The notes under the pieces are model-generated. The model worked only from the letters and a program-made list of their open reading frames with translations. It was not told where the DNA came from and searched no databases. 64,000 nucleotides of DNA from the NCBI RefSeq assembly GCF_053078305.1, contig NZ_CP166879.1. One strand, 5' to 3'. The translations under genes and the position numbers were made by a program. Every line of letters starts with the position of its first letter. Positions within the stretch are counted from its first letter, which is position 1. This document shows positions 36,485 through 53,520 of this stretch, piece by piece.

Positions 36485-36678
36485 AACAGGAGTTTGATGG
36501 TGCGCCTGATGATGCAGGTGATGCGCTTTCGTCAATATCCGAACTGATAAGAGTGGCCTTTTTCTTACTTGGCACGAAAGAATATAAATCAACTGGAATA
36601 GACGTACTGAATATTACTGCTGATTATGCGGAATATATGGCAGAAGTGGATTTAAGAAAGATAACGGACAGGGGGTAA
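36457..36678 (+). CDS. Hypothetical protein
   Basis: 73 aa, coupled. Confidence 0.35.
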   Translation: MRDDRFNALKQEFDGAPDDAGDALSSISELIRVAFFLLGTKEYKSTGIDVLNITADYAEYMAEVDLRKITDRG

Positions 36679-36679
36679 T

Positions 36680-36913
36680 ATGCGTGATATTTACCACGAA
36701 ACAATAGACCGCGCATTTAGTGCCCTTGCTTACGCTGAAGGTATGTACGAAATATTGCAAATGTGTCTGGAAACATTTGGCGATAATGAGCGTGATGTAA
36801 AGAAGGCGCGGATTATTAAATCACTGATAACTCTCCTTGAACCTGTAATAACAGAGTTGCAGGAAATAGACTTATTGCACGACAGATATAACGAACAGCA
36901 CACCGGAGAATAA
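36680..36913 (+). CDS. Hypothetical protein
   Basis: 77 aa, coupled. Confidence 0.4.
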   Translation: MRDIYHETIDRAFSALAYAEGMYEILQMCLETFGDNERDVKKARIIKSLITLLEPVITELQEIDLLHDRYNEQHTGE

Positions 36914-36918
36914 AAATA

Positions 36919-37218
36919 ATGAAACTTAAATATCCTGGCTTAACTGCCAGTGGCAACACTCACCCTAAATTTACGCGCGGTGATATTTACCGCGACCAGT
37001 ACGGCGGCACGGTAATGATTAAGGGCGTGGCGGGACGGTGCGTAACTTACCGCCGTGAAGGCTACGAATATGATTGCGTGATGCCTGTTTATCAGTTCCG
37101 GCGTGATTTTTCTCTGGTACAGACCGCGCCGCATAACGTGCCCACCAGCAACGCCAGGGCACGGGCAAACATCCAGAAGCTGAAAACCATGATTAACGGA
37201 TTCAGGGGTAAAAAATGA
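36919..37218 (+). CDS. Hypothetical protein
   Basis: 99 aa, stop overlaps helicase start. Confidence 0.4.
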   Translation: MKLKYPGLTASGNTHPKFTRGDIYRDQYGGTVMIKGVAGRCVTYRREGYEYDCVMPVYQFRRDFSLVQTAPHNVPTSNARARANIQKLKTMINGFRGKK

Positions 37219-38624
37219 AACTGGCACCGAACGTAAAACGATTACCGAAAGATAAATACACCGAAGCGGTTATTTTTGCGGGTATTGATGCTCACTCATT
37301 CGCAGAGCATTACATCATTGCACAGGCCAAAAAAGCAGGCGATCCAGTCCCTCCCGTTTATCTGGGGCGTTATCAGTTAAGCGAACTGGATAACCTCCAG
37401 ATTGTTGATGATGGGCGATACAGGGCGACGGTGATACGCGCCGGAAATATTGAAGAGCCGCAGCTGTTAACCATCGCCACGAAACTGGCGAGCGCCGGAG
37501 TCCAGGAGGCGCGGCTACTTTCTGAAAATTTCGAATTGCTGGAGGAATGGAGCGACCAGCTTCCACGGCTTAGGGAGGCATGGGAACGCGGGGAAAGCCT
37601 GGTCATGAAAAAAATTCCCCAGCGAAAAACCACGCTACCGATGAGCGTTGGATCTACCGGATACGACACACAGCTTGATTACGTGGTAAAGGGGATTATT
37701 CCGGCATCGTCGCTTTGCAGCATATACGGGGCGAGCGGTTCCTATAAATCATTCCTTGCCGGATCGTGGGCGTGTCACGTTTCCACGGGCCGCCAGTGGG
37801 GAGGCCGCAGGGTGGCGCATGGCGCTGTTCTCTATGTGGTTGGTGAAGGCGGTATCGGCGTTCCGCGTCGTGTAAAAGCCTGGGAGGTTGTGCACGGTGA
37901 GCAGGTGAAAAATCTGTATCTGGTAAACCGTCCCATCTTTCCGGCTGTCCCGCTTGATGTTGATGAACTGGTTATTGCTGCCAGTCAGGTGGAGAGGGAA
38001 ACGGGTAAACCTGTTCGCATGATTATTCTGGACACGCTGGCGCGTTGCTTTGGCGGCAATGATGAAAATGACTCCCGCGACATGGGGGCATTTATCCGTG
38101 GTTGTGACGAGCTTAAACGGCGCACAGGGGCTACGGTGCTGGTGGTTCACCATTCCGGCAAGGATGAAACAAAGGGGGCGCGTGGTTCCAGTGCATTTCG
38201 TGCATCACTGGACGCTGAATACCGGATACGCAGGGAGGACGCAGGAAGCGAAGCGCTGGTTATCTCATGCACCAAAATGAAGGACGCGGAGGAACTCAAA
38301 GAGGCTGCCTATGATTTGCGGGTGGTGGAGCTTTTTACCGACGCTGACGGGGAGTTAATTACGTCGCTGGTGGTGGTGGATAAGCCGCGCCCTCCCGTTG
38401 AACTGGAGCGCATCGAGGAGGCAGGCAACAAGACGGAAAACCATACCGCGCTATGGGGGTGCATCCGTTCACGCACACAGAACGGCGACAAGTGCACGAT
38501 CCCGCTGTTACGTGACGATATGAAAAAGCTGGGGTATGACACAAAACACCTTAAACGATGGTTAGCCAAACTGGAAAAAGACGACGTGATCTACATTGAC
38601 GGTGATGATGTAGGACCACTGTAA
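37215..38624 (+). CDS. Replicative ATPase/helicase (RecA/DnaB-like NTPase domain)
   Basis: 469 aa; Walker A GASGSYKS, Walker B ILDTL, ...VVHHSGKDETKGARGSSA... Confidence 0.75.
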   Translation: MKLAPNVKRLPKDKYTEAVIFAGIDAHSFAEHYIIAQAKKAGDPVPPVYLGRYQLSELDNLQIVDDGRYRATVIRAGNIEEPQLLTIATKLASAGVQEARLLSENFELLEEWSDQLPRLREAWERGESLVMKKIPQRKTTLPMSVGSTGYDTQLDYVVKGIIPASSLCSIYGASGSYKSFLAGSWACHVSTGRQWGGRRVAHGAVLYVVGEGGIGVPRRVKAWEVVHGEQVKNLYLVNRPIFPAVPLDVDELVIAASQVERETGKPVRMIILDTLARCFGGNDENDSRDMGAFIRGCDELKRRTGATVLVVHHSGKDETKGARGSSAFRASLDAEYRIRREDAGSEALVISCTKMKDAEELKEAAYDLRVVELFTDADGELITSLVVVDKPRPPVELERIEEAGNKTENHTALWGCIRSRTQNGDKCTIPLLRDDMKKLGYDTKHLKRWLAKLEKDDVIYIDGDDVGPL

Positions 38625-38826
38625 AAAGTGGGCATTAAAAGTGGGAAAGGTGGGCGATTTAACGTAATTTTAACAAAATCACCCACTTTCCCACGTGTAT
38701 ATATCCCAAAAAGTGGGCACTAAAAAAATACCTATGAAACAAGATGATATAAATCCCAAACTTCCCACGTTGGACGAAGTGGGAAAACGTAAAAAGTGGG
38801 CGAAAAAAGTGGGTAGAGGTGGGCGA
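38625..38826 (+). repeat. Iteron array (AAGTGGG-type repeats), putative satellite ori
   Basis: About nine AAGTGGG / CCCACTT copies immediately downstream of helicase gene. Confidence 0.5.
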
Positions 38827-39078
38827 ATGACTCAAAAACACAGAGACAGAACAGAGCCAAAATATAAAGCGTTAGACATGACAGAGCACGCTTTAAAGGT
38901 GGCAATCAGGGTAATAGACCGCCACACGCGGGAAGGATACGCGAAGGAACATCCCGACCTGATAAGCGCATTCATGACCACAGCGGCGGCAAACTTTGCC
39001 ACGCTGACAGAACGGGAGATAGCCGAAGCGGAACAGGTAACAACCATCAACGTTAAAACCGGAGAGGTGGAATCATGA
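38827..39078 (+). CDS. Hypothetical protein
   Basis: 83 aa from MTQKHRDR; upstream part of tracked ORF lies on iterons and is rejected. Confidence 0.35.
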   Translation: MTQKHRDRTEPKYKALDMTEHALKVAIRVIDRHTREGYAKEHPDLISAFMTTAAANFATLTEREIAEAEQVTTINVKTGEVES

Positions 39079-39485
39079 CAGCACAGATAGCCGCTTACGG
39101 GCGGCTGGTGGACGACCCGCAGGTAAAACAAACCAGCAAGGGCACACCGATGACGCTGGCGCGTATGGCGGTATCTCTGCCATGCAGCCAGGCACAGGAC
39201 GGGCAGGCTACGTTATGGCTATCAGTGATGGCATTTGGTAAGCAGGCCGACTTCCTGGCTAAACATCAAAAAGGCGATGTTGCCAGCGTATCCGGCACGA
39301 TGCAGGTAAGCCAGTGGACCAGACAGAACGGGGAAACGCGGCAGGGTTATCAGGTTATTGCAGACAGTGTAATCAGTGCCCGTGCTGCCCGTCCTGGCGG
39401 GAGCAGACGTACAACCACAGGCACACAGGGTAATCAGCCACCAGCGGGAGGCGATGACCCTTACGGTGACGGTATTCCGTTCTGA
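39075..39485 (+). CDS. SSB-like single-strand DNA-binding protein
   Basis: OB-fold-like N-terminus, Gly/Pro-rich tail ending DDPYGDGIPF. Confidence 0.55.
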   Translation: MTAQIAAYGRLVDDPQVKQTSKGTPMTLARMAVSLPCSQAQDGQATLWLSVMAFGKQADFLAKHQKGDVASVSGTMQVSQWTRQNGETRQGYQVIADSVISARAARPGGSRRTTTGTQGNQPPAGGDDPYGDGIPF

Positions 39486-39495
39486 GGGGGTGACG

Positions 39496-39768
39496 ATGGT
39501 ACATGACCGCATAGCGGAGGAACTCGAGGCAAAAGGCTTTTACCGGAGGGCGGCGGCGCGATGGGGTGAAGTTATGCAGCTGGTGGAGACAGACAAGGAA
39601 CGGCATCAGGTTACGATGCGACGGCTGGAATGTTCCAGGAAGGCACAGAGGCCACCGGAGCCGCCGGATAACTTCGGAGACCTGAAAAAAGCAGTAGATC
39701 GCACTTATGCCGAAATGGGTATGGATGGTGTAAGCGATGAAATATGGCGTAATTACCCAGACAGCTAA
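39496..39768 (+). CDS. Hypothetical protein
   Basis: 90 aa, GAGGGGG RBS. Confidence 0.35.
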   Translation: MVHDRIAEELEAKGFYRRAAARWGEVMQLVETDKERHQVTMRRLECSRKAQRPPEPPDNFGDLKKAVDRTYAEMGMDGVSDEIWRNYPDS

Positions 39769-39774
39769 TCAACA

Positions 39775-39846
39775 GCCGGAGAAATCCGGCTTTTTTGTAC
39801 CCAAAAAAAGCCCGATAAGTACAGGAGGCATCTTATCGGGCTTTTG
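39775..39846 (+). terminator. Two tandem intrinsic terminators ending the replication operon
   Basis: GCCGGAGAAATCCGGC+U6 and GCCCGATAAG...CTTATCGGGC+U4. Confidence 0.5.
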
Positions 39847-40007
39847 CATATGAGGTTTTTTTGGTGCACTGACACACATGATCGGGGTAATCATTTCATA
39901 ATTTGCAACACAACTCAACATCATTGCACAAAATGCAATCCTGATTATAATCAGAGCTGGATGAACATCCAGTTCTGATTTTTTAAGTCAAAGAGGAATT
40001 TCTTACT

Positions 40008-40214
40008 ATGGCTGAAGAGAAAAAAGGCGGTGTTTCGGTGTACATAAGCCCCGAAATCGTGGAGGTGCTCAAGCAGCGCCACAAAAAAAACTATGAGGCT
40101 GGCGTAGCGGCTGGACTGGATCCGCTGATGACGCCGGAGCCGTCGATAGGTTCACTTGTGCGCTCTTATTTACTTGCGGCGCTTGGGATGCATAAAAATT
40201 ATGGTGGTGAATAA
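40008..40214 (+). CDS. Hypothetical protein preceding capsid gene
   Basis: 68 aa, AGAGGAA RBS. Confidence 0.4.
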   Translation: MAEEKKGGVSVYISPEIVEVLKQRHKKNYEAGVAAGLDPLMTPEPSIGSLVRSYLLAALGMHKNYGGE

Positions 40215-41269
40215 TGACAGTAAAAGCAATGGCACTTACAACTAACCAGCTTTTCGCGTACCTGAATCGCGGGGATATTGCAGAATTTAAATTCAGTCCG
40301 CTGTTTACCACGCTGTTTTTCCCGAACGTGGCGACCTTCAACACCCAGAACATCATGCTGGACACCCTGGACATTGAAGAGGTTACGATGTCAGCGTTCT
40401 GTTCGCCTATGGTGGGTAGTCAGGTCCAGCGCGATAAAGGGTACGAAACCAGCACGATTAAACCAGGCTACATGAAACCCAAACACGAAATCGATCCAAC
40501 AAAAACCATCATGCGCATGGCTGGAGAAGATCCGGCACAGCTTAACGACCCTACCTACCGCCGTATGCGCCTGATTACTGGCAACATGCGCCGCCAGATA
40601 AACGCCATTAAAGCGCGCGTGGAATGGCTGGCGGTGAATGCGATAACGACCGGAAAAAACATCATTGAGGGCGAAGGCATAGAACGCTATGAAATCGACT
40701 GGAAAATACCGGAAAACTGCATCATAGAGCAGGCCAAGGGTAAAAAATGGTCCGAGCATGATAAAGATATTTACGATCCAATCTATGACATCGAACTATA
40801 CGCAGATCAGGCAGGTTGCCCCGCCAACGTCATGATTATGGGCGCTGAGGTATGGCGCACGTTACGCAGCTTTAAAAAATTCCGCGAACTGTACGATCTT
40901 TCCCGTGGTTCAGAATCCGCCGCAGAACTGGCCTGTAAAAACCTGGGTGAAGTAGTGAGCTTTAAAGGCTATCTGGGCGATATTGCCCTTATCGTCTATT
41001 CCGGCAAATACACTGACAGCGACGGTACCGAAAAATATTTCCTTGAGCCTGATTTGCTGGTCCTGGGTAACACCAACAATAAAGGGCTGGTGGCCTATGG
41101 TGCGATTATGGATCAGGAAGCGGTAAGAACGGGCGCAACGCAAAACATGTTCTACCCGAAAAACTGGATTGAAGACGGCGATCCGGCGATTGAGTACGTT
41201 CAGACGCACAGCGCACCGCAGCCGGTACCGGCAGATATTCGCAAATTTGTTACCGTCAAAATTGCTTAA
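40214..41269 (+). CDS. Major capsid protein paralog (gpE-like) encoded by satellite
   Basis: Shares blocks PGYMKPKHE, GEDPAQLNDP.YRR, VVSFKGY.GD.A.VV, DGTEKY with prophage E at 46646. Confidence 0.8.
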   Translation: MTVKAMALTTNQLFAYLNRGDIAEFKFSPLFTTLFFPNVATFNTQNIMLDTLDIEEVTMSAFCSPMVGSQVQRDKGYETSTIKPGYMKPKHEIDPTKTIMRMAGEDPAQLNDPTYRRMRLITGNMRRQINAIKARVEWLAVNAITTGKNIIEGEGIERYEIDWKIPENCIIEQAKGKKWSEHDKDIYDPIYDIELYADQAGCPANVMIMGAEVWRTLRSFKKFRELYDLSRGSESAAELACKNLGEVVSFKGYLGDIALIVYSGKYTDSDGTEKYFLEPDLLVLGNTNNKGLVAYGAIMDQEAVRTGATQNMFYPKNWIEDGDPAIEYVQTHSAPQPVPADIRKFVTVKIA

Positions 41270-41280
41270 CGGGGGATTCT

Positions 41281-41616
41281 ATGGACACTCCATACATTGA
41301 GTTATTTGCAGGCAGTCAGCAGGTATCCACGACGCTGGTACATTTTGCCGCTGATGCTGGCGTTATTCAGGAATTTACCCCGCTGATGCTGGCGGACAAT
41401 GGCGAGTTTAAGCCGTGGGATGGTCAGGAATCTGGCAAGGCTGTTTATCTGACCTCGTACCCCGTGGACACGTCAAAGCAGAAATCAGCACAGTGTTACA
41501 AGACGGGGATATTTAATATCGCCGCCGTAAACTGGCCTGAGAGCGCCGACACTGACGCGAAAAAATGCGCCGCCTTTGCGGGTTCTGGCGTATCCGTTCA
41601 GCCGCTGGCGCGATAA
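41281..41616 (+). CDS. Head decoration protein paralog (gpD-like)
   Basis: 111 aa; TPLMLADNG..KPWDGQ and YKTGIF motifs shared with prophage D. Confidence 0.7.
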   Translation: MDTPYIELFAGSQQVSTTLVHFAADAGVIQEFTPLMLADNGEFKPWDGQESGKAVYLTSYPVDTSKQKSAQCYKTGIFNIAAVNWPESADTDAKKCAAFAGSGVSVQPLAR

Positions 41617-41628
41617 GCAGGGGAAACG

Positions 41629-42042
41629 ATGGCAACGAATGAAAGCATCATGGCGCTACCGCTGGCGAGTAAATTTAAAGCAGAAGCGCGGGCAATGGCT
41701 GACAGAGGTTTATCAACCTACGAGGCCGTATATCAACTCAACAAACTGGAAGAGCAGGACAAGCCGCGCGCTGATGCGATTATGGCGCTTCATGAACATA
41801 ACGACTATCAGCCGCTGTTACGTGCAATGGCAAACGTGCCATGTATTAGCGTCGATAATGCTCGTGAAATCCTGAACATGACCATAGAGCAGGAGCGCCC
41901 AAAGGTTGCGCCGGAGCTTACCGCAGCCTTTGAAAACTTTATGGACATGCACAGCCCGAAAGCCGTATCACCCGGCATGGCATACGACGGCAGAAACCAG
42001 GGCGATGAAGGCGACGTCGATCGCATACTGAAAACCATCTGA
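41629..42042 (+). CDS. Scaffold-like protein (Nu3-like C-terminus)
   Basis: C-terminus ...AAFENFMDMHSPKAV... parallels prophage C/Nu3 tail ...ALFEHFMANHSPAAV... Confidence 0.5.
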   Translation: MATNESIMALPLASKFKAEARAMADRGLSTYEAVYQLNKLEEQDKPRADAIMALHEHNDYQPLLRAMANVPCISVDNAREILNMTIEQERPKVAPELTAAFENFMDMHSPKAVSPGMAYDGRNQGDEGDVDRILKTI

Positions 42043-42072
42043 CATAAGGCCGGAGAAATCCGGCTTTTTTTA

Positions 42073-42150
42073 CGGGTCCTTTCCGGCATATGGACCCGTT
42101 ACGGGGCGGCGACCTCGCGGTTTTTCGCTATTTATGAGCTTTTTTCGGGT
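42073..42150 (+). other. Satellite cos site (cosN 42104-42115)
   Basis: About 48 bp identical to prophage cos (GGGTCCTTTCCGGCATATGGACCCGTTACGGGGCGGCGACCTCGCGG), then divergent. Confidence 0.65.
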
Positions 42151-42236
42151 GCTGGTGGTGGTTTTGTTGTTCGCTCTATCTCTATGAATAAAAAGGGAAA
42201 GATAAAACCAATACACCAACCTGAAACATTACTTAA

Positions 42237-42791
42237 GTGGGGATATTGATGAAATCGCACCTGATGAACAAAAAAAACATGGCGCAAAGCTGCCGTGTAA
42301 GTGCGACAGCGTTCGACAAGTGGGGAGTGACTCCCGTTGAACGTAAAGGACGCGAGGCTTTTTACGATGTTGCCAGCGTGATAGACAATCGGGTAAGCAA
42401 TGCAATTAACCAGGTTACAAACGACAAAGGCGAGATTGATGATGATGAACTCTTACGAGTCAGGATCAGATTACTGACCGCCCAGGCTGAGGCGCAGGAA
42501 CTTAAAAACGAGCGCGATCGCGGTGACGTAATTGATACTGAGTTTTGCCTGTACGCGCTTTCAAAGCTGGCGAGTCAGATTTCTTCAATCATGGACAGTT
42601 TGCCGCTTACCATGCAAAGGCGCTTCCCGCAGATTACTCCCGCTATGCTGGATGGGCTTAAAAGGGAAGTGGTTAAAGCCTGTAATGCCAGTGCCACAGT
42701 TGCCGACAACCTCCCGAAGATACTGGCTGATTACCTGATGGAAACTACCGGAGACGTACCGGAGAAGTTGCTACAGAAGAAAGGCGAGTAA
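42237..42791 (+). CDS. Terminase small subunit homolog (Nu1-like; possible packaging redirector)
   Basis: ...FCLYALSKLASQISSIMDSLPLTMQRRFPQI... parallels Nu1. Confidence 0.65.
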   Translation: MGILMKSHLMNKKNMAQSCRVSATAFDKWGVTPVERKGREAFYDVASVIDNRVSNAINQVTNDKGEIDDDELLRVRIRLLTAQAEAQELKNERDRGDVIDTEFCLYALSKLASQISSIMDSLPLTMQRRFPQITPAMLDGLKREVVKACNASATVADNLPKILADYLMETTGDVPEKLLQKKGE

Positions 42792-42959
42792 CAGACGCGC
42801 AATTATTGAACAAAAGTAAGGCCCGACATGAAATCACCCAAAAATGCCTTTTTCATGCGTTTGTATGTCTGACCTTTTACGGTTTCGATATTATAAAAAA
42901 CAAATAGTTACGCTCGAGAGGTACCGACACGCATTTTTCAGGAAAATTTTCATAAACAG

Positions 42960-43020
42960 ATAAAAACCGCGAGGTCGCCGCCCCGTAACGGGCCATAATT
43001 CCAGGAAGGACCCGACGACA
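42960..43020 (-). other. Second, inverted cos-like site (cosN complement 42972-42983)
   Basis: Minus strand reads CCCGTTACGGGGCGGCGACCTCGCGG...TTTATGAAAATTTTCC. Confidence 0.5.
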
Positions 43021-43047
43021 CCAGGCTATCAGAACGATGAGGGCACA

Positions 43048-43329
43048 ATGACAGAAGCCGAACTACTGGGATTAATCCGCTACGTTACCGGAATCAGCCA
43101 GCAGCATGACGAACAGGCCACGCAGCCGGACAGCGTGACCGCTGAAAATTATGCGCGTGTTGTTGCTGAGGTGATGCGCCGTGATGGTATCCAGCTTAAT
43201 GATGCAGATATGCGCGACATACGGATCCGCGTTCTTGAAATGCTGGCCTACCGTCGCCGCGTGCAGACGTACAGGGAAAAAGCAAAAATAACGTACCAGT
43301 GGAAGAAGCCGGAGCGATTACGGCGGTAA
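43048..43329 (+). CDS. Hypothetical protein
   Basis: 93 aa. Confidence 0.35.
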   Translation: MTEAELLGLIRYVTGISQQHDEQATQPDSVTAENYARVVAEVMRRDGIQLNDADMRDIRIRVLEMLAYRRRVQTYREKAKITYQWKKPERLRR

Positions 43330-43929
43330 CTTGCTGATATTCCCGATAACGCAAAATTGCGCTCTGTCCTAACCCGTTGATATTTTCGGGAACAGCCAAC
43401 GGCTGAGGCCGGAACAACGATTATCTTTCAGATAGTCAGAGCTACGAAATTTTCGTAGTTTAATTACTCGCCAGTTTATCGTTAACTCGTTGATATTTTC
43501 GGTAACCTCAATTTGAGGAGATCGGAAACATAACCCTTCACATTCTGAATGGTTATAATGACCACTCAGACCATCAAGGCAACCATAACGAACATCGTTA
43601 CGGTTGGAGCTTTTACCCCACTGGGGGGAAGGTGCACATCTGGATCATCATTACCGTGATCAAGGGTATGTAAAACCCACCAGCCTGATTAACTGTTAAC
43701 CGGAAAAAAGCCAGGTAGCCAATCTCGATATGGGGATCCCCATATCGACATTAACGCCCCCTAGAACTGCGCATATCTGCATATAAAAACATCCACCAGC
43801 TTTATGACGGATGCCGCTCATCTGATAAATAATCGTGTATTGCAATGTGTATTGCGACTCCTTTAAACGATAGGTTTGAGCATTCGTAATGTACTGTTTT
43901 TAAATTTTATTTTTTCCTGTCTTTTCATA

Positions 43930-43942
43930 AAAGCCATGTATG
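43930..43942 (+). repeat. Right att core AAAGCCATGTATG
   Basis: Direct repeat of 32091-32103. Confidence 0.5.
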
Positions 43943-44709
43943 CAGCGACGATTGAAAGTGAACTTGATACCGAAAAGGCCTTTGAATATATCGCCGGTGC
44001 GCCGCAGGGGCAGAAGGATAATCCGCTTATTAATATTCTGGATAAGTTCTCCACCTGGTATGACACGAATATCGTGACGCTGGGCGGTGTCAAAATTCCG
44101 CACCTTTTCCCCGGTGATGATCTGAAACTTCAGACCGCGCAGGATTCAGACAATGGATTTTCGGCGCTTGAACAGGCGCTGCTGCGGTATATCGCCGCCG
44201 GTCTTGGCGTTTCCTACGAACAGTTGTCCCGTGATTACTCGAAGGTCAGTTATTCAAGTGCCCGCGCCTCCGCCAATGAGTCGTGGCGCTATTTTATGGG
44301 ACGACGAAAATTTATTGCAGCCCGGCTGGCCACGCAGATGTTTTCCTGCTGGCTGGAAGAGGCACTTCTTCGGGGGATTATCCGTCCGCCACGGGCACGT
44401 TTTGATTTTTATCAGGCGCGTTCAGCCTGGTCGCGGGCAGAGTGGATTGGCGCAGGAAGAATGGCCATTGACGGGCTCAAGGAGGTCCAGGAATCAGTGA
44501 TGCGCATTGAGGCCGGACTGAGCACGTATGAGAAAGAGCTGGCGCTGATGGGTGAGGATTATCAGGACATTTTCCGCCAGCAGGTCAGGGAATCCGCAGA
44601 GCGGGAAAAAGCCGGACTCTCACGTCCGGTGTGGATAGCGCAGGCGTATCAGCAGCAGATAGCAGAGAGCCGCAGGCCGGAAGAGGAGACAACACCACGT
44701 GAGACGTAA
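43930..44709 (+). pseudogene. Portal protein (gpB-like), C-terminal ~256 codons
   Basis: Resumes at ...AATIESELDTEKAFEYIAGAPQGQ...; the tracked ORF start at 43876 lies in inserted DNA. Confidence 0.75.
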
Positions 44710-46204
44710 TCTTTCACACATTATTGCCGCAGCATTCAATGAACCGCTGCTTCTGGAGCCCGCCTATGCGCGGGTTTTCTTTTGCGCGCTCGGGCGCGAG
44801 ATGGGGGCAGCAAGTCTTTCGTTACCACAACAGCAGGTACAGCTTGATGCTCCCGGGATGCTGGCTGAAACGGACGAGTACATGGCCGGAGGTAAACGAC
44901 CGGCCCGTGTTTACCGGGTGGTGAACGGTATTGCGGTACTGCCGGTGACCGGCACGCTGGTGCACCGGCTGGGTGGTATGCGGCCATTTTCCGGAATGAC
45001 AGGCTATGACGGCATTGTTGCCTGTCTTCAGCAGGCAATGGCGGACACCTCTGTCCGGGGCGTACTGCTGGATATTGACAGTCCGGGCGGGCAGGCCGCC
45101 GGTGCGTTTGACTGCGCTGACATGATTTACCGCCTCCGGCAGCAGAAGCCGGTCTGGGCACTGTGTAATGACACGGCCTGTTCTGCGGCCATGCTGCTGG
45201 CGTCGGCCTGCTCCCGACGGCTGGTTACCCAGACATCCCGTATCGGCTCCATTGGCGTGATGATGGGCCATGTCAGCTATGCCGGTCATCTGGCGCAGGC
45301 CGGAGTGGATATCACGCTGATTTATGCCGGGGCGCATAAGGTGGATGGCAATCAGTTTGAAGCGTTGCCGTCAGAGGTTCGCCAGGACATGCAGCAGCGG
45401 ATTGATGCGGCGCGCCGGATGTTTGCCGAAAAAGTGGCGATGTATACGGGGCTGTCTGTGGAAGCTGTCACGGGGACAGAGGCTGCCGTTTTTGAAGGTC
45501 AGTCCGGTATTGAAGCCGGGCTGGCGGATGAATTAATCAATGCGTCGGATGCCATCAGTGTGATGGCTGCGGCGTTGAACACACATGATACAGGAGGCAC
45601 TATGCCGCAATTAACTGCAACGGAAGCCGCCGCGCAGGAGAACCAGCGAGTGATGGGGATCCTGACGTGTCAGGAAGCGAAAGGACGTGAACAGCTTGCC
45701 ACGATGCTGGCAGGACAACAGGGCATGAGCGTTGAACAGGCCCGGGCGATTCTGGCCGCGGCGGCACCACAGCAGCCGGTGGCATCCGCGCAGAGTGAAG
45801 CCGATCGCATTATGGCGTGTGAAGAAGCTAAAGGTCGTGAACAACTGGCGGCAACGCTGGCGGCGATGCCGGATATGACGGTGGAAAAAGCCCGCCCGAT
45901 CCTGGCGGCTTCACCGCAGGTGGATGCCGGCCCCTCACTCCGTGATCAGATTATGGCTCTGGATGAGGCAAAAGGGGCTGAGGCGCAGGCTGAACAGCTG
46001 GCTGCCTGCCCGGGAATGACAGTGGAGAGCGCCCGGGCTGTGCTGGCTGCGGGATCAGGTAAGGCAGAACCGGTTTCTGCATCAACAACCGCCCTGTTTG
46101 AACATTTCATGGCGAACCATTCACCGGCAGCCGTGCAGGGTGGCGTGTCACAGACGTCGGCAGACGGTGATGCGGACGTGAAAATGCTCATGGCCATGCC
46201 ATGA
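44699..46204 (+). CDS. Head protease/scaffold (gpC with in-frame Nu3-like C-terminus)
   Basis: S49-type peptidase region ...DIDSPGGQAAG...; three ~36-aa tandem repeats near C-terminus. Confidence 0.8.
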   Translation: MRRNLSHIIAAAFNEPLLLEPAYARVFFCALGREMGAASLSLPQQQVQLDAPGMLAETDEYMAGGKRPARVYRVVNGIAVLPVTGTLVHRLGGMRPFSGMTGYDGIVACLQQAMADTSVRGVLLDIDSPGGQAAGAFDCADMIYRLRQQKPVWALCNDTACSAAMLLASACSRRLVTQTSRIGSIGVMMGHVSYAGHLAQAGVDITLIYAGAHKVDGNQFEALPSEVRQDMQQRIDAARRMFAEKVAMYTGLSVEAVTGTEAAVFEGQSGIEAGLADELINASDAISVMAAALNTHDTGGTMPQLTATEAAAQENQRVMGILTCQEAKGREQLATMLAGQQGMSVEQARAILAAAAPQQPVASAQSEADRIMACEEAKGREQLAATLAAMPDMTVEKARPILAASPQVDAGPSLRDQIMALDEAKGAEAQAEQLAACPGMTVESARAVLAAGSGKAEPVSASTTALFEHFMANHSPAAVQGGVSQTSADGDADVKMLMAMP

Positions 46205-46240
46205 AGTCAGTGCTGACCATCAATATGAGGTTTTTACAAT

Positions 46241-46588
46241 ATGGTAACGAAAACCATCACTGAACAACGTGCGGAAGTACGTATTTTTGCCGGTAATGAT
46301 CCGGCTCATACCGCCACAGGCAGCAGCGGGATTTCTCAGGCAACACCGGCACTGACGCCCCTGATGCTGGATGAAGCCAGCGGGAAACTGGTGGTCTGGG
46401 ACGGACAGAAAGCCGGTAATGCGGCTGGCATACTGGTACTGCCGCTTGAAGGCACAGAGACGGTGCTGACGTATTACAAGTCGGGGACCTTTGCGACGGA
46501 GGCAATCCGCTGGCCTGAAAGTGTGGATGAACACAAAAAGGCCAACGCCTTTGTCGGCACAGCCCTGAGTCACGCGGCGCTGCCGTAA
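46241..46588 (+). CDS. Head decoration protein (gpD-like)
   Basis: 115 aa; ...NDPAHTATGS...TPLMLDEASGKLVVWDGQ...YKSGTF... Confidence 0.8.
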   Translation: MVTKTITEQRAEVRIFAGNDPAHTATGSSGISQATPALTPLMLDEASGKLVVWDGQKAGNAAGILVLPLEGTETVLTYYKSGTFATEAIRWPESVDEHKKANAFVGTALSHAALP

Positions 46589-46645
46589 CACGTTATCAGG
46601 CCACCGCGTTGGCCTGACTGATTTCTGAATGAAAGGAACTGATTT

Positions 46646-47674
46646 ATGGGATTGTTTACGACCCGCCAGTTACTCGGTTATACCGAACAAAAAGTGAAAT
46701 TTCGTGCGCTGTTTCTGGAGCTGTTTTTCCGCCGTACGGTGAATTTCCACACCGAAGAGGTGATGCTGGATAAAATTACCGGAAAAACGCCGGTGGCAGC
46801 CTATGTCTCCCCGGTTGTTGAAGGAAAAGTGCTGCGTCATCGTGGTGGTGAAACCCGCGTGTTGCGTCCGGGCTACGTCAAGCCGAAACACGAATTTAAT
46901 TACCAGCAGGCGGTGGAGCGCCTTCCCGGTGAAGATCCGGCGCAACTGAACGACCCGGCCTACCGTCGTCTGCGTATCATCACTGATAACCTCAAACAGG
47001 AAGAGCATGCCATTGTCCAGGTGGAGGAAATGCAGGCGGTGAATGCCGTGCTGTATGGCAAATACACCATGGAAGGGGAGCAGTTTGATACTGTCGAGGT
47101 GGATTTCGGGCGCTCTGAAGGAAATAACATTGAGCAGGCTGACGGTAAAAAATGGTCTGAGCAGGACCGTGATACGTTTGATCCGACGCATGATATTGAC
47201 CTCTACTGCGATCAGGCCAGCGGTCTTGTGAATATCGCCATTATGGACGGTACGGTCTGGCGTCTGCTGAATGGCTTTAAGTTGTTCCGCGAAAAACTGG
47301 ATGCCCGTCGCGGCTCAAATTCACAACTCGAAACAGCAGTGAAAGACCTGGGGTCGGTGGTGTCCTTCAAGGGGTATTACGGCGATCTGGCCATTGTGGT
47401 GGCGAAAACGTCTTATGTGGCAGAGGACGGTACCGAAAAACGTTATCTGCCGGAGGGCACGCTGGTCCTGGGAAATACGTCAGCGGAGGGCATCCGTTGC
47501 TATGGTGCCATTCAGGATGCGCAGGCGTTGTCCGAAGGTGTGGTGGCCTCTTCCCGTTATCCGAAACACTGGATGACCGTGGGCGATCCGGCCCGTGAAT
47601 TCACCATGACGCAGTCCGCGCCGCTGATGGTGCTGCCGGATCCGGATGAGTTTGTGGTGGTACAGGTGAAATAA
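46646..47674 (+). CDS. Major capsid protein (gpE-like)
   Basis: 342 aa collinear with lambda gpE. Confidence 0.9.
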   Translation: MGLFTTRQLLGYTEQKVKFRALFLELFFRRTVNFHTEEVMLDKITGKTPVAAYVSPVVEGKVLRHRGGETRVLRPGYVKPKHEFNYQQAVERLPGEDPAQLNDPAYRRLRIITDNLKQEEHAIVQVEEMQAVNAVLYGKYTMEGEQFDTVEVDFGRSEGNNIEQADGKKWSEQDRDTFDPTHDIDLYCDQASGLVNIAIMDGTVWRLLNGFKLFREKLDARRGSNSQLETAVKDLGSVVSFKGYYGDLAIVVAKTSYVAEDGTEKRYLPEGTLVLGNTSAEGIRCYGAIQDAQALSEGVVASSRYPKHWMTVGDPAREFTMTQSAPLMVLPDPDEFVVVQVK

Positions 47675-47725
47675 TCCGGGAGCGGGGGCGAAATGCCCCC
47701 GTGTCTTTTTTCACAGGGGGCTGAG

Positions 47726-48109
47726 ATGGCAACAAAAGAAGAAAATCTGAATCGTCTTCGTCAACTGGCTGGTCTGCTGGGGCGCGAGGCGGATATGTCG
47801 GGGAGTGCTGCGGATATTGCTCTGCGTGTGTCTGAGTGGGAAGAGGAGCTTGCAGCTTCCCGGGAGGGCATTATGCACTCTGATGAGAGCGGGTCTGATC
47901 AAAATGACACAGACGATGGTGAGCAGTTGAACAACACGGATTCTCCGGATGATGTTAAAGCCGTCCGGGTACGGAAGTGCCTGCAAGTGATGGGGTATTG
48001 CCCGGAGACAGGTCGTCCCGTTGAGCTGGCGTTACGGGGTATGCGTGTTCTGGTGCCATCATCACTGGCAACGGCCATGATACAGCACGGAACGGCTGAA
48101 TATGCGTGA
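47726..48109 (+). CDS. gpFI-like DNA packaging protein
   Basis: Start at MATKEENLNRLRQLAG; upstream extension rejected. Confidence 0.7.
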   Translation: MATKEENLNRLRQLAGLLGREADMSGSAADIALRVSEWEEELAASREGIMHSDESGSDQNDTDDGEQLNNTDSPDDVKAVRVRKCLQVMGYCPETGRPVELALRGMRVLVPSSLATAMIQHGTAEYA

Positions 48110-48470: not shown

Positions 48471-48953
48471 ATGGCGATAAAAGGGCTTGATCAGGCGATT
48501 GATAATCTGAGCCGGGTTCGTAAAAACGCCATTCCTGCTGCTTCAGCAATGGCCATTAACCGCGTGGCCACAACGGCAATAAATCAGTCTGCGTCACAGG
48601 TTGCCCGTGAGACAAAGGTACGCCGGAAACTGGTAAAGGAAAGGGCCAGGCTGAAAAGGGCCACGGTAAAAAATCCGCAGGCCAGAATCAAAGTTAACCG
48701 GGGGGATTTGCCTGTAATCAGGCTGGGTAATGCGCGGGTTGTCCTGTCCCGACGCAGGCGACGTAAAAAGGGGCAGCGTTCATCCCTGAAAGGTGGCGGC
48801 AGTGTGCTTGTGGTGGGTAACCGTCGCATTCCCGGCGCGTTTATTCAGCAACTGAAAAATGGGCGGTGGCATGTCATGCAGCGTGTGGCCGGGAAAAACC
48901 GTTACCCCATTGATGTGGTAAAAATCCCGATGGCGGTGCCTGTAACCAGGTAA
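48471..48953 (+). pseudogene. Minor tail protein Z-like, truncated at codon ~157
   Basis: Near-identical to lambda gpZ up to ...VVKIPMAVP then diverges and stops; lambda gpZ is ~190 aa. Confidence 0.75.
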
Positions 48954-49245
48954 ATCATTTGATACCGACAAGGGTTTTAGTGAAAGGAGGTGAAATCACC
49001 TGTAAGATACTGAAATAAAACAGGTGATCGATGATTCTGGAGGTTGTTTAGTTTTGATACTGATTAAATAAAATCCGGTATAAAATTAAGGTATCGGCAA
49101 CAAATTTGATACTGCACATACTGCTTATGGACGTTTTTAAAAGTACTTAAAATGTCTTTTATGCTAAAAAGTTTATATCAATATCGATCTGGTCACAAAT
49201 CAAGTTGAAAGTGCTCGCTAAGTGCATAGCCTGGGCTTCATGGGG
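48941..49245 (+). repeat. Putative Mu-like left end (attL) with repeated TTTGATACYG motifs
   Basis: Motif at least four times in about 200 bp; begins 5'-TG where Z homology ends. Confidence 0.45.
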
Positions 49246-49764
49246 TTACGCTTTGGCTTCTTTATGGGTTAAATTGAAATGATGCTCCTTGGTTTCATCT
49301 CCCTCGAAAATCTCTCTAACCTTTTGATCTGATAAATTATTAAGGCTCAATGCTGCCAGGCGTCGAATACCTGTTAAAGCGATCAACTCTTGATTCTCTT
49401 GATTGCAGAATTCCAGCAATTTTTCTACCCCTTTCCTTCTCAAGGTGTAAATAACTAATTCTTGCTCTTCTTGGCTCAAAGTGTCGATGAGTTCGAGCAA
49501 CTCGCTATTGCCACCGTTCTTTTGAGGGGGCTGGTGTTTTATTTCTGCACTACCTGTAATGATGGAAACAACATGTGCAGGTAAGTCGCTTAAACGGTAG
49601 GCAAATGCTCTCCCTCTGATACCAGGTGTAGTTACCGAACGTTTTTCCCATCCTTCATTTTTTGCTCGTTTATGAAGCCCAGCCAGAGATGAAGGAAGAC
49701 CTCCAACCCCCAACAAGTCACTGGCAAGGATCCATTCTTGGTCAAGGATCATATCAAACTCCAT
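49246..49764 (-). CDS. Mu c-like repressor
   Basis: N-terminal ...LPSSLAGLHKRAK... domain shared with the transposase N-terminus. Confidence 0.7.
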   Translation of the reverse strand: MEFDMILDQEWILASDLLGVGGLPSSLAGLHKRAKNEGWEKRSVTTPGIRGRAFAYRLSDLPAHVVSIITGSAEIKHQPPQKNGGNSELLELIDTLSQEEQELVIYTLRRKGVEKLLEFCNQENQELIALTGIRRLAALSLNNLSDQKVREIFEGDETKEHHFNLTHKEAKA

Positions 49765-49981
49765 TTGATATTAACTTTTGTTTATATCTTTTATGCGGTT
49801 TATTTCAAAAATAACTCAATAAAAAACAAATAGATACAGAGCAAATTTAAAAATTTGAAATTAACCAGTTGATATTTACTAAGTTAATATCTAACATATC
49901 AAACATACACTAGTGAGTAACTCAATAGAGTAGCACACATGAGTAATAAAGTTTGCCATAGAAAGTACACAGGGGGCCATT

Positions 49982-50227
49982 GTGAGTCTTATTGAAGATT
50001 GGTCTTCCGCCGATATAAAGGCAGCCTTAGAAAAACGCGATACCAATTTGTCACGTTTATCAAGGGAAAATAATTTGCAGCCTAGGACTTTGGGTAATGC
50101 TTTGCGAGTTCCCTACCCTAAAGGTGAAAAGATAATTGCTAGGGCTATAGGTGTAGAGCCACAGGTTATTTGGCCTACTAGATATGAACGACGTGCGCGG
50201 AGGAAATATGTGGGTTGCAATGACTGA
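49982..50227 (+). CDS. ner: Ner-like DNA-binding regulator
   Basis: 81 aa; ...LSRLSRENNLQPRTLGNAL...KGEKIIARAIGVEPQVIWPTRY. Confidence 0.7.
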   Translation: MSLIEDWSSADIKAALEKRDTNLSRLSRENNLQPRTLGNALRVPYPKGEKIIARAIGVEPQVIWPTRYERRARRKYVGCND

Positions 50228-52292
50228 ATTGATTTCATTCAGTGACCTACCTAGTTCTTTGGCAGGTCTGCACAAAAAAGCAAAGAGGGAAGCGTGGAAA
50301 ACGCGGCTAAAACCAGGGGTAAAAGGGAAAGTTTTAGAGTGTGAAATAGGAGCTTTGCCTTTAACTGTTCAGCAGGCAGTACGCGAACGCCATGCCCTGC
50401 AACTGATGACGCAAAAAGCCGATGAATCACCGGCTCCGGTGGTGACAAAGGCCAGACGCTCACCTGCCGTGGTTGATGCGGTGGAGGCATATCGCGGATC
50501 ACCCCAACTGATGGTCGAACGCCTCAATGCCCTGACTGAAAATCAGCGCCAGGTGGCTGATGCACGAATCGCGATCGTCAGCGAAGTTCTGAAAGTCGCG
50601 CAACAACCTGGTTTCAGCTGTGCGAAGGCTATCCGGTTTATCGTTGACAACCTGGCACGTTCGCAGTTGGACGAGCGCATTGTGGCAATGGTTGAGACGG
50701 CGAACGCCAAAAAGGGAAACAGCCGCGCGTTAAGTGAAATCACGCTGAAACGCTGGATTGCGGCCTTTAACAAGGCGCAGAACGCCGCTGAACGCCTGCT
50801 TTTACTGGCACCGGGTAAGCGCCAGGAAATAAAAGCCGAAGATATTAACTGGCTGCCCGAATTTCTGGCGCAGTATCGCCAGTCAAACGGCCGACCAATG
50901 ACCGAGGCTTACGAGGATTTTGTCGCTGAATGGCAGCACCGGCACGCCGATGAGCCTTATATGCTCGATATCATGCCGTCTTATGACACCATTCGCCGCG
51001 CAATGAAGAAACTGCCGGAAGTGGTGAAACAAAAAGGCCGGGTGACCGGCAGTGAATACCGCCAGCTTGAGGGATTCACGCGCCGCGACTGGTCAAAAAT
51101 GCCGGTGAATTATGTCTGGATTGGTGACGGTCACGGCATGAAGCTGAAATGCGCACACCCGGTTCACGGTCGGCCATTTGCACCGGAAGTGACCTTTGTT
51201 ATCGACGGTGGCACGCGCTTTGTGGTGGGCTGGAGCCTTGACCTGGCTGAAAATGTTTTCGCCGTAGCCGGTGCCATACAGCACGGCATTCGCCATCACG
51301 GCAAACCGTTTCTGTATTACTCGGATAACGGCTCCGGGGAAACCGCCGACATCCTGGATAAGGAGGTTGTGGGGATACTGCCGCGACTGGGGATTAATCA
51401 CCCGACCGGGATTGCCGGTAATCCGCAGGGACGAGGCATTATCGAACGGCTTAACCGCACATTACCGATGCGCATAGCCCGTAAATACCGCACCTATTTC
51501 GGGAAAGGTGCAGATCGCGAGACGTTACGCAAAACCAACCGCGATTTACGCTCGGCATTTACTGCCCTGCAACAGGGCAAACGGCTGAACGCCCGGCAGC
51601 AGTCAGCGATGCGTGATTTACCGTCCTGGTCTGAACTGATTGATGCCATTCGTGACGGTGTTGAGTGGTACAACAACCGGCCGCACGATGAATTACCGGT
51701 GAAGCCGAACGGCAAGCATTACAGCCCGGCGGAGTTCAGAAAAAAACGCCTGGCGGAAGAGGACACGGAAATTGAATGGCTGTCCGATGTTGAGCTGCGG
51801 GATATGTTCCGGCCGATGGTGGAACGCCCTGTAAGACGCTGTGAAATACGCTGGCTGAATAATATTTACTACGCGCCCGAGCTGCGTGACGAGCATGGTC
51901 GTAAGGTGCTTATCAGCTATGACATTCATGATGCCGAACGAATTACCGTACGTCGCCTGGATGGCAGCGTGATTTGCGAGGCGGTATGGGACGGTAATAA
52001 ACGCGAAGCCTTCCCGGTTAGCGCGGAATACTACAAACAGCAGCAACGCCTTAAAGGCATGCGTAAACGCGCAGAGGAAAAAATCCGTGATGCCGAGGAT
52101 GAGGTTGTCAACGTGCTGGAGCACAAGCCGCAGGAGCCCTGGCTGGAAAACATATACCGCCCTGTGGGTAATACGGTGACCGTTCAGCAACCGGTCGCTG
52201 ACGATGAACCTGATGAAGAATACGAGCGTAATTTCCAGCGGGGATTGCAGTTGCTGGAAGCGAAATTAAAAGAAAATGACCCGCTGGCCTGA
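50208..52292 (+). CDS. MuA-like DDE transposase
   Basis: About 695 aa; repressor-like N-terminal domain; GGAGG RBS; start overlaps ner. Confidence 0.85.
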   Translation: MWVAMTELISFSDLPSSLAGLHKKAKREAWKTRLKPGVKGKVLECEIGALPLTVQQAVRERHALQLMTQKADESPAPVVTKARRSPAVVDAVEAYRGSPQLMVERLNALTENQRQVADARIAIVSEVLKVAQQPGFSCAKAIRFIVDNLARSQLDERIVAMVETANAKKGNSRALSEITLKRWIAAFNKAQNAAERLLLLAPGKRQEIKAEDINWLPEFLAQYRQSNGRPMTEAYEDFVAEWQHRHADEPYMLDIMPSYDTIRRAMKKLPEVVKQKGRVTGSEYRQLEGFTRRDWSKMPVNYVWIGDGHGMKLKCAHPVHGRPFAPEVTFVIDGGTRFVVGWSLDLAENVFAVAGAIQHGIRHHGKPFLYYSDNGSGETADILDKEVVGILPRLGINHPTGIAGNPQGRGIIERLNRTLPMRIARKYRTYFGKGADRETLRKTNRDLRSAFTALQQGKRLNARQQSAMRDLPSWSELIDAIRDGVEWYNNRPHDELPVKPNGKHYSPAEFRKKRLAEEDTEIEWLSDVELRDMFRPMVERPVRRCEIRWLNNIYYAPELRDEHGRKVLISYDIHDAERITVRRLDGSVICEAVWDGNKREAFPVSAEYYKQQQRLKGMRKRAEEKIRDAEDEVVNVLEHKPQEPWLENIYRPVGNTVTVQQPVADDEPDEEYERNFQRGLQLLEAKLKENDPLA

Positions 52293-52363
52293 AATAAAAA
52301 AATAACCCGAGCGGCGACTCAGGTTATTTGATTAAACAAGGTATCAAATGAAAGGTTAATAAT

Positions 52364-53296
52364 ATGACTGATATTAACGATGTAATCAAGACCATTGATG
52401 AACTTATTGATGGCGGCGTACTGACGCAGTATGCCATCGCCAGAGAGGCGGGAATTTCCGACGGCACATTATCGGCTTTCCGTAAGGGAAAATATAAAGG
52501 CGATAACGCTGCTGTGGCTGCTTCCCTGCGTTCCTGGTATGAGAACTGGAATAAACAAAGCGCACTGCCGGAACCGCCGCAGTTTGTGGAAACGCAGACA
52601 GTCCAGGAGCTGCGCACACTGTTTCAGGCGGTTCGTCTGATGGGCTGTATTAACGTTATTGTGGGCGTACCGGGTGTGGGTAAAACGGCCACTGCCCGTA
52701 ATTACTGCCAGGAGCAACCAAACACCTGGATGATCACCCTGTCACCCGCGCACTCCAGCGTCACGGAGTGTCTGCTGGAGCTGGCCGATGCGCTGGGGAT
52801 TGATTACACCCGCGCGAACAAAGGGGCATTATCCCGCGCCATCCGCCGTCGCCTGATGGGAACGCGTGGACTGGTGATTGTGGATGAGGCGGATCATCTT
52901 GGTATTGACGGTCTGGAGCAACTCCGGGCAATTCAGGACGCCACGGGGATCGGGATGGTGCTTATTGGTAACCCGCGCGGATTGTTTAAAGGTGGACGCC
53001 GCGCCTTTGATGATTTATCGCGCCTGTTCAGCCGTCTTGCCCGTACAAAACAACTTCGCAAGGCCAAAAAGGCGGATGTGCTGGCCATTGCCAGTGCGTG
53101 GGGGATCAGTGGTGAGGCCGAGCTGGCCGTCATGCAGGCTATCGCTGAAAAGCCGGGAGCGTTACGCGTTCTGACACATACGCTTAACCAGGCGTGGCTC
53201 ACCGCCAGCGGTGAAGGCGCGGCGCTGACAGAAAAACATATTAATGCGGCCTTTAAAGAGGTTTATACCAACCCTGAATTACTCTCACAGGTGTGA
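52364..53296 (+). CDS. MuB-like AAA+ ATPase
   Basis: Walker A VGVPGVGKT, Walker B VIVDEADHL. Confidence 0.85.
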   Translation: MTDINDVIKTIDELIDGGVLTQYAIAREAGISDGTLSAFRKGKYKGDNAAVAASLRSWYENWNKQSALPEPPQFVETQTVQELRTLFQAVRLMGCINVIVGVPGVGKTATARNYCQEQPNTWMITLSPAHSSVTECLLELADALGIDYTRANKGALSRAIRRRLMGTRGLVIVDEADHLGIDGLEQLRAIQDATGIGMVLIGNPRGLFKGGRRAFDDLSRLFSRLARTKQLRKAKKADVLAIASAWGISGEAELAVMQAIAEKPGALRVLTHTLNQAWLTASGEGAALTEKHINAAFKEVYTNPELLSQV

Positions 53297-53520
53297 TTAT
53301 GGCGGTATTTAATATTCCTGATATTTACGGACGCTTTTACCTGGTTAATTTCGATAACGTGAAGGTGATTTCACTGGCCGAAAATAAAGAATGTGGCGAT
53401 TTACTTTTTGAATTTAATGACCGCACACGAATGGTGATATCTGCCGGACTTGATCGCGAAGGTGCGACAGACGTTTACAGCGGAATATGCCGTTCTGTTG
53501 GTGCGAAACAAGTCAGCTAA
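53293..53520 (+). CDS. Small early protein (kil position)
   Basis: 75 aa immediately after B; positional. Confidence 0.35.
   Translation: MIMAVFNIPDIYGRFYLVNFDNVKVISLAENKECGDLLFEFNDRTRMVISAGLDREGATDVYSGICRSVGAKQVS

Follow-up and report, generated by a model that had tools for sequence, protein, structure and literature searches.

The gene 5/6 locus and its three repeat units

The subject of this study is a triplicated protein repeat in the scaffold part of a phage head gene, found in a 64,000-nucleotide stretch of contig NZ_CP166879.1 (NCBI RefSeq assembly GCF_053078305.1), which as a whole we call the window and whose positions are used throughout. Judged by its sequence, the open reading frame (ORF) concerned, 44699-46204, encodes an S49 prohead protease of the lambda gpC type with a phage 21-type scaffold part, and here we confirmed three tandem, in-frame repeat units (U1 to U3) within it. 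The features of this ORF, with unit boundaries taken from a hidden Markov model (HMM) and lengths in amino acids (aa), are as follows.

44699..46204, plus strand: gene 5 homolog (lambda gpC type), 501 aa; S49 prohead protease with a C-terminal scaffold part
45592..45597, plus strand: Shine-Dalgarno (SD) sequence AGGAGG for the nested start; putative ribosome-binding site (RBS) in the phage 21 records
45602..46204, plus strand: nested in-frame gene 6 homolog (Nu3-type scaffold), 200 aa; corresponds to the gene 6 coding sequence (CDS) of M81255.1
45641..45772, plus strand: U1; HMM envelope aa 315-358, 73.5 bits; sequence NQRVMGILTCQEAKGREQLATMLAGQQGMSVEQARAILAAAAPQ
45803..45919, plus strand: U2; HMM envelope aa 369-407, 83.4 bits; sequence DRIMACEEAKGREQLAATLAAMPDMTVEKARPILAASPQ
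45944..46060, plus strand: U3; HMM envelope aa 416-454, 73.8 bits; sequence DQIMALDEAKGAEAQAEQLAACPGMTVESARAVLAAGSG
46061..46201, plus strand: non-repeated C-terminal tail of 47 aa (..ALFEHFMANHSPAAV..DVKMLMAMP) at the 3' end of gene 5/6

The conserved cores of the units (aa 321-354, 371-404, and 418-451, or nucleotides (nt) 45659-45760, 45809-45910, and 45950-46051) share 56-65% aa identity, with U3, which has GAE in place of GRE, being the most divergent. Pairwise local alignment of the units gave scores of 107, 86, and 103 against shuffle means of ~25-27 (standard deviation ~5), which corresponds to z values of 17, 11, and 15, and the observed score was reached by none of 2000 composition-preserving shuffles. 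Thus, the three tandem repeats proposed in a first-pass annotation of this DNA are real. Moreover, a search of all six frames of the window with the unit HMM returned U1-U3 as three strong matches, together with a single weak one in ORF 41629..42042. The repeat length of ~36 aa given in that annotation suits the conserved core (~34-40 aa) but not the period of the array, since the units start 50 and 47 aa apart, and the period exceeds the core because of linkers (13-16 aa between 34-aa cores, ~8-10 aa between HMM envelopes) that are rich in Pro, Ala, Gln, and Ser (AAPQQPVASAQSEADR and SPQVDAGPSLRDQ). Likewise, the interval assigned to the repeats, 45600-46204, is that of the whole nested scaffold gene from ATG 45602, inside which the repeats do lie, at 45641-46060, ahead of the 47-aa tail.

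At the DNA level, the units are only 57-69% identical to each other, third codon positions differ in 56-65% of codons, and more than half of the residues that are identical between units are encoded by synonymous variants, and synonymous sites are nearly saturated. Tandem Repeats Finder (minimum score 30) reported nothing, and a DNA repeat search detected only the U1/U2 pair (97 nt, 70%). The earlier description of the repeats as encoded by near-repeated DNA therefore does not hold. Tandem repetition of the variable-number type is absent from this array at the DNA level and occurs only in a sister Escherichia coli lineage described below, where nt identity reaches 95%. Because the unit DNA is so diverged and Tandem Repeats Finder came back empty, the triplication is old, and it is kept at the protein level.

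The repeat itself is already known, and its annotation in phage 21 dates from the early 1990s, with GenBank features as the evidence of prior description. In the entry M81255.1 ('Bacteriophage 21 head gene operon'), gene 6 contains three repeat_region features noted as 'function unknown; putative', which we converted to window positions by adding 43198 to the locus coordinate. These are the Tri1 box (locus 2471-2574, window 45669-45772, U1), the Tri box (locus 2611-2721, window 45809-45919, U2), and the Tri3 box (locus 2752-2865, window 45950-46063, U3). At ~104-114 nt each, the Tri boxes coincide with the units that we found independently, and by this correspondence the three repeats of the window are the Tri-box triplication that the annotation of phage 21 gene 5/6 already contains.

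The attribution of the host gene to the gpC/Nu3 type in the first-pass annotation is borne out as well. In the gene 5 product, Pfam PF01343 (Peptidase_S49) matches aa 146-293 above its gathering score (E 7.6e-35), and the gene is 96% identical to phage 21 gene 5 across all 1506 nt, with several 21-like phage isolates matching in the same 96%-identity class. In addition, the gene 6 region maps onto the 'scaffolding protein' CDS of a second phage 21 record, OL657228.1, and the gene 6 product matches phrog_53, phrog_8399 (head scaffolding protein), and phrog_1999. Upstream lies the C-terminal part of the portal gene, which ends at 44709 and overlaps the gene 5 start (44699), and downstream follow HDPD (from 46241) and Phage_cap_E (from 46646). 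The resulting gene order of a lambda-family portal fragment, gene 5, gpD-type decoration protein, gpE-type major capsid protein, and gpFI is collinear with phage 21.

Both phage 21 records annotate the nested in-frame gene 6 with its own RBS (as 'head-tail preconnector gp6' or 'scaffolding protein', a Nu3 homolog), and the 200-aa gp6 is probably produced from the internal SD-ATG at 45602 in addition to full-length gp5. We noticed that CAGGAGG, 4 nt, and ATG are kept at an equivalent Gly-Gly-x-Met in the window, in Gifsy-1, and in lambda (Met309), with TGGAGG in HK225. Counted from this conserved start, three-unit scaffolds measure 200 aa (window) and 197 aa, and one-unit scaffolds 131-137 aa (131 aa in lambda). 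As a side observation, the RefSeq start of lambda Nu3 is Met239 (201 aa; NC_001416 5132, as against 5342 for Met309), which lacks a strong SD, and the residue aligned to it in the window is an Ile (45401, versus the conserved start at 45602). Curated protein databases presumably place the lambda Nu3 start at Met309.

Fold, spread, and copy number of the unit

To describe the fold of the repeat, we ran AlphaFold2 on gp6 with a 49-sequence alignment, and this gave a mean predicted local distance difference test (pLDDT) value of 85, with 10-residue block means of 81-96 across residues 1-150 and values >90 over most of the length of the units. Each unit is predicted to be a small three-helix bundle, the helices being gp6 residues 6-22, 30-37, and 44-53 in U1 (block means of 89-96 over residues 1-50), 61-72, 80-88, and 94-103 in U2, and 113-118, 127-135, and 141-152 in U3. 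Confidence dips at the linkers (block means of 81 at residues 51-60 and 101-110), and the tail is modeled at lower pLDDT as two helices (residues 160-173 and 190-197). With a predicted template modeling score (pTM) of 0.45, the relative placement of the units is undefined, a value that is compatible with independent beads on a string. A Foldseek search against BFVD retrieved the same module in other phage S49 peptidases. A sequence search of the PDB returned SppA structures (E 6e-16) and ClpP for the protease domain and zero matches for the repeat region.

For the breadth of the unit, a 40-column profile built from ten units was searched against 1.84 billion representative proteins, which gave 652 matching clusters at E <= 1e-3 and 75 at E <= 1e-10. 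Among the best 150 of the 652 clusters, 140 carry a single unit, with two units counted in six clusters and three units in another three. Two classes of protein are represented, one of ~400-560 aa whose unit lies close to the C-terminus, as is usual in both length and position for S49 protease-scaffolds, and another of ~80-250 aa, comprising stand-alone scaffolds or fragments. The unit consensus is (E)RxRIxaILxLxEAKGRExLAxxLAxxPGMTVExAKxILAAAPK, after which the tails are variable, and in PHROGs the unit forms part of families named 'head maturation protease' and 'head scaffolding protein'. On these profile matches, the unit is shown to be the conserved core of lambda-family protease-scaffold proteins, in which it is normally single-copy. 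A scan of the scaffold part with Pfam and NCBIfam found no family model covering the unit. A helix-hairpin-helix assignment (PF00633 HHH) was rejected, as its score of 15.3 bits (E 0.018) falls below the cut-off of 24 and the match is confined to U3. Also set aside was P0165, a 1479-aa protein with 12 matched stretches, which is an unrelated helix-turn-helix-like repeat protein whose match is limited to helix 2-turn-helix 3.

Turning to copy number, the homolog comparison that had been suggested for the repeat yielded 1, 2, about 2.5, 3, 4, or 5 units across E. coli prophages. Among the 120 closest proteins, in which we counted units with the unit HMM, three units are found in the 501-aa homologs. 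Two are found in 451/452-aa homologs with three different junctions (within GREQLA in P0092, at AR|PIL in P0105, and at PQ|AD in P0116), which implies at least three independent one-unit deletions. Four are found in two 551-aa proteins that differ elsewhere (P0002 and P0003). The commonest form, indexed in 3592 blocks of the collection, has 482 aa and a U2 that lacks 19 aa between two LAA motifs. The 482-, 451-, and 551-aa forms all reside within complete, syntenic Nu1-A-W-B-C-D-E-FI-FII-Z-U-V... modules. It is plausible that the 2-, 4-, and 5-unit forms are functional. A different kind of change is seen in P0001 (657 aa, on a 5.59-Mb contig), where a 156-aa segment from the protease-domain end into unit 3 is duplicated to give six unit matches; seen once, this could be real or an assembly artefact. 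P0083 (721 aa) and P0086 (577 aa) are normal gpC homologs through unit 3, after which an unrelated Gly/His-rich sequence of tail-fibre-like appearance replaces the tail, and both are probably deletion fusions in decayed prophages. P0089 has the same length as P0086 (577 aa).

A second E. coli prophage lineage, with a related tail (..LFDRFMAQHAASAV..LLMSMP), was first met as contig-edge fragments, and every named fragment bears the label 'S49 family peptidase, partial'. We followed it in ten complete genomes (L018-L027: STEC313, STEC383, STEC005, PSJ-22, A36, STEC276, ETEC1746, E275a, ETEC1732, and UTAK-3), of which seven encode a 538-aa protein and three a 584-aa protein. Four units were counted by HMM in two of the former and five units in two of the latter, with the others assigned from CDS length. 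These arrays have a period of 46 aa and, with units that are nearly identical as DNA, they break short-read assemblies, so that numerous 'S49 family peptidase, partial' records lie at the ends of contigs. The same portal accession, WP_097450122.1, accompanies five units in STEC313 and STEC005 and a 538-aa gene of four-unit length in E275a, so the gain or loss is recent. The capsid protein of the five-unit lineage has 342 aa and is 84% identical to that of the window, without a gap. On the prophage evidence, unit copy number is labile and appears to be tolerated, and it changes by recombination or slippage between units.

As for the age of the triplication, the Gifsy-1 prohead protease STM2605 (YP_001700609.1) has three units in the same order and the same tail type as the window. 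Here, the scaffold part is ~55% identical overall, the Gifsy-1 units are closest to the window units in the same position (75%, 78%, and 57% identity), and the Gifsy-1 U3 keeps the GRE that is lost from the window U3. In a neighbour-joining tree of the units from five three-unit proteins and lambda, grouping is mostly by position, with the U1s joining the single unit of lambda, the U2s placed together, and the U3s grouped in three proteins; the divergent U3 of the window and the U2 and U3 of P0123 fall elsewhere. This grouping by position means that the triplication predates the split between phage 21-type and Gifsy-1-type proteins, with each position conserved since. One unit each was identified by HMM in lambda, HK225, phage 2B8, and Aeromonas phiARM81ld, and 434, N15, phi80, and HK630 each gave a single tblastn match of one-unit size. 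Where the extra units would sit, the one-unit proteins have a low-complexity stretch of ~50 aa rich in Ser, Thr, Ala, and Gln.

The embedded satellite and its scaffold paralog

The 21-like prophage of the window is not continuous. Phage 21 bases 791-3649 and 3637-7554 align to window 29245-32103 and 43930-47847, and from this split alignment an element of ~11.8 kb interrupts the portal gene, and the two aligned segments overlap by 13 bp where it joins. The element and its scaffold gene are located as follows.

~32104-43929, co-oriented with the late operon: satellite in the portal gene of the 21-like prophage; 13 bp shared at ~32091-32103 and 43930-43942
41629..42042, plus strand: satellite scaffold paralog, 137 aa; two degenerate units and a phage-type tail

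The satellite encodes an integrase, a regulator, a primase-helicase, and a Nu1-like small terminase (TerS), as well as a gpE-like capsid protein that is 47% identical to that of the phage and a gpD-like protein that is 34% identical. With this content and position, it matches the 'helper-embedded PICI' (phage-inducible chromosomal island) class, for which integration into lambda genes A, B, C, and E has been described (Mageeney et al. 2023, PMC10111431). We also observed, downstream of the satellite Nu1-like gene, a cos-like segment (42818-42983) that is 79.5% identical to phage 21 cos (bases 1-165) and inverted relative to the cos of the prophage itself at ~28487-28527.

The satellite scaffold paralog mentioned in the first-pass annotation stands up to closer comparison. 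By BLASTP, the 137-aa protein is 35% identical to gp6 over 83 aa (U3 and the tail; E 4e-10), and in multiple alignment its entire sequence is collinear with U2-U3-tail, while phrog_1999 matches it at full length. In its natural variants of 93 aa (the set of P0294, P0297, and P0298), exactly 44 aa are missing between ..KAEARAMA and NVPC.., a loss that falls at a shared ARAMA/LRAMA sequence and leaves one unit where the 137-aa form has two. Such an exact loss indicates that the N-terminal half of the satellite scaffold is a degenerate unit in register with the second. The best-conserved stretch between satellite and helper is the tail motif F-[ED]-x-F-M-x-x-H-S-P, extended as F-E-x-F-M-x-x-H-S-P-x-A-V, and the AlphaFold2 model of the satellite protein is all helical (mean pLDDT of 70). 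These alignments mark ORF 41629..42042 as a true paralog of the phage scaffold. Its NCBI family name, 'phage head-tail connector protein', looks like a misnomer inherited from 'head-tail preconnector gp5/gp6'.

On the far side of the head genes, phage 21 homology ends at ~48948, inside gene Z, and the end of a Mu-like prophage then begins (~48949-53300 and beyond). Together with the satellite insertion, this means that the 21-like prophage is interrupted twice. The Mu-like genes are as follows.

49246..49764, minus strand: c-repressor-like gene
49982 onward: ner-like gene
50184..52292: MuA-like transposase gene
52364..53296: MuB-like gene

Proposed function of the module array and comparison with known systems

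The reading that we favor, with a probability of roughly 60%, is that the units form an old, labile array of three-helix modules in a phage-21-type protease-scaffold, in which the tail docks and the modules add valency and length while capsid geometry is unchanged. Here, the 47-aa tail would serve within the procapsid to dock the scaffold onto either the capsid protein or the portal, a role assigned by analogy with other phages, whose scaffold C-termini dock onto the capsid protein. The three-helix modules would mediate scaffold-scaffold or scaffold-shell contacts, and extra copies would contribute valency and length without altering the geometry of the capsid. As gp5 shares the whole segment, the modules should also carry the protease into the prohead. 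For lambda, the listed interactions are Nu3-Nu3, Nu3-E, Nu3-B, and C-Nu3, and Nu3 is reported to be required for portal incorporation (PMC3224144). Several points weigh against this reading. The predicted arrangement between units is unreliable at the pTM obtained, and use of the internal start at 45602 is read from sequence features only. The function of the unit is a proposal, and the phage 21 record says 'function unknown'; moreover, the capsid protein, the portal, or the scaffold itself as binding partner of the tail or units is our suggestion. Lastly, the 2-, 2.5-, 4-, and 5-unit forms come from prophages only, with none among the isolated phages of INPHARED.

A quite unlikely alternative, in our judgment, is a capsid-size ruler, whereby the number of units sets scaffold length and hence capsid size or T number, and the shorter satellite paralog steers assembly towards small capsids. 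Lineages do differ in unit number, the two-unit, helper-tailed paralog of the satellite adjoins its own gpE-like and gpD-like genes, and there is a precedent in the CpmB protein of SaPIs, which has a C-terminus in common with the helper scaffold and redirects the size of the capsid, though we know of no size redirection for the helper-embedded class. Yet the major capsid proteins of lambda (one unit, 131-aa scaffold) and the window phage (three units, 200 aa) are collinear at 341 and 342 aa with 62% identity, and three, four, and five units occur alongside 342-aa capsid proteins that are 84% identical and gap-free, even with four or five units beside one portal accession. Capsid proteins of equal length and 62-84% identity with 1-5 units thus argue against a ruler. 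Moreover, lambda and lambda-21 hybrids with phage 21 head genes package genomes of similar size, and small-capsid mutations of lambda map to the capsid protein itself, according to literature cited in PMC12749128. Of the proposal in the first-pass annotation that repeat number may tune scaffold length, naturally variable copy number is what stands; its extension to capsid size or to the satellite is speculation, and a tie between unit number and capsid dimensions runs counter to the equal-length capsid proteins. An effect of unit number on the rate or fidelity of assembly may still be compatible with the 1-5-unit series. Selection could instead act on the linkers, with the units serving as cassettes that multiply protease cleavage sites so that gp5 degrades the scaffold fast before DNA packaging. 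Exposed Pro/Ala/Gln/Ser-rich linkers with lower AlphaFold2 confidence would suit such sites, and degradation of Nu3 by gpC is reported for lambda (table in PMC3224144). The invariant and near-invariant columns, nevertheless, sit in the helical core, and the linkers vary freely in sequence and length between lineages, which points to selection on the helices rather than the linkers. No cleavage-site consensus is detectable in gp6, nor do we know of one for gp5, and we regard the linker explanation as unlikely.

More improbable by far is a role of the repeats as nucleic acid, such as CII-dependent antisense promoters, protein-binding sites, or structured RNA. The record OL657228.1 does annotate two minus-strand 'CII binding site' pattern matches in gene 6, both of which are present in the window (45607-45620 and 45841-45854), but with 10 occurrences in the window the pattern TTGYN6TTGY is no more frequent than chance would give (15.7 expected), just one of the annotated pair falls inside a repeat unit, leaving the other two units without it, and the repeats are conserved at the amino-acid and not the DNA level. 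Consensus-match scans found no promoter-like site inside the repeats and one terminator-like match, on the minus strand inside U2 (45908-45892), and the minus-strand ORFs over the repeats have no PHROG match. As for an artefact of Ala/Glu/Gln-rich, low-complexity composition, the region is Ala-rich and Tandem Repeats Finder was empty, but we give this explanation a negligible chance, as it is refuted by the shuffles (0/2000, z = 11-17), by the 652 clusters found with the 40-column profile, and by the same three-helix fold predicted for each unit at pLDDT >90 over most of its length. A bolder extension, which we hold to be doubtful at best, regards the unit as a widespread, readily recombining 'scaffold module' whose copy number is under diversifying selection in a conflict between lambdoid helpers and embedded satellites. 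If so, the two-unit, helper-tailed scaffold of the satellite would compete for the portal or capsid protein of the helper, and gain or loss of units (1-5 in helpers, 1-2 in satellites) would alter assembly kinetics or susceptibility to hijacking.

Because the feature was annotated some thirty years ago, the direct value of finding it again is low. What is new beside the phage 21 record comprises the module fold, its breadth, the range of 1-5 units, the two units and shared tail of the satellite protein, and the one-unit satellite variants. The Tri-box unit, present in 652 clusters and lacking a Pfam or NCBIfam model or a solved structure, represents an uncurated core of lambda-family protease-scaffolds. 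Returning to the module array as the favored reading, the prophage series of 1 to 5 units with 342-aa capsid proteins (84% identical where compared) offers natural material on scaffold length and valency in a T=7 lambdoid head. The sister-lineage arrays matter in turn for annotation, as the source of 'partial S49 peptidase' records from broken short-read assemblies.

Compared with known systems, the window gene is nearest to phage 21 genes 5/6 (M81255.1; CPT_21_05/06 of OL657228.1), which have the same nested gene 6 start and RBS, and the difference between the two is limited to ~4% sequence divergence. The lambda gpC and Nu3 proteins (NP_040584.1 and NP_040585.1) occupy the same gene position and follow the same plan of a scaffold nested in the protease gene, with an S49 protease domain that is 61% identical to that of the window and a unit that is 63% identical to U1 and followed by a homologous tail. 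In contrast to the three units of the window phage, lambda has one, preceded by a Ser/Thr/Ala/Gln-rich stretch of ~50 aa, and with protease domain and capsid protein both collinear, the two architectures differ in the scaffold part only. Tandem three-helix bundles are also found in bacterial surface proteins (protein A, the GA module, and Ebh), though at 2-17% identity, with weak scores and unrelated biology, the likeness is a fold-class analogy only. Lastly, as with CpmB in the SaPI1/80alpha system and Sid of P4, the satellite employs a small helical protein, and here its tail is shared with the C-terminus of the helper scaffold. Reviews of such satellite systems include PMC6893505 and PMC7552001. 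Unlike the CpmB and Sid systems, and with no sequence relationship to either protein, this satellite adds capsid and decoration proteins of its own.

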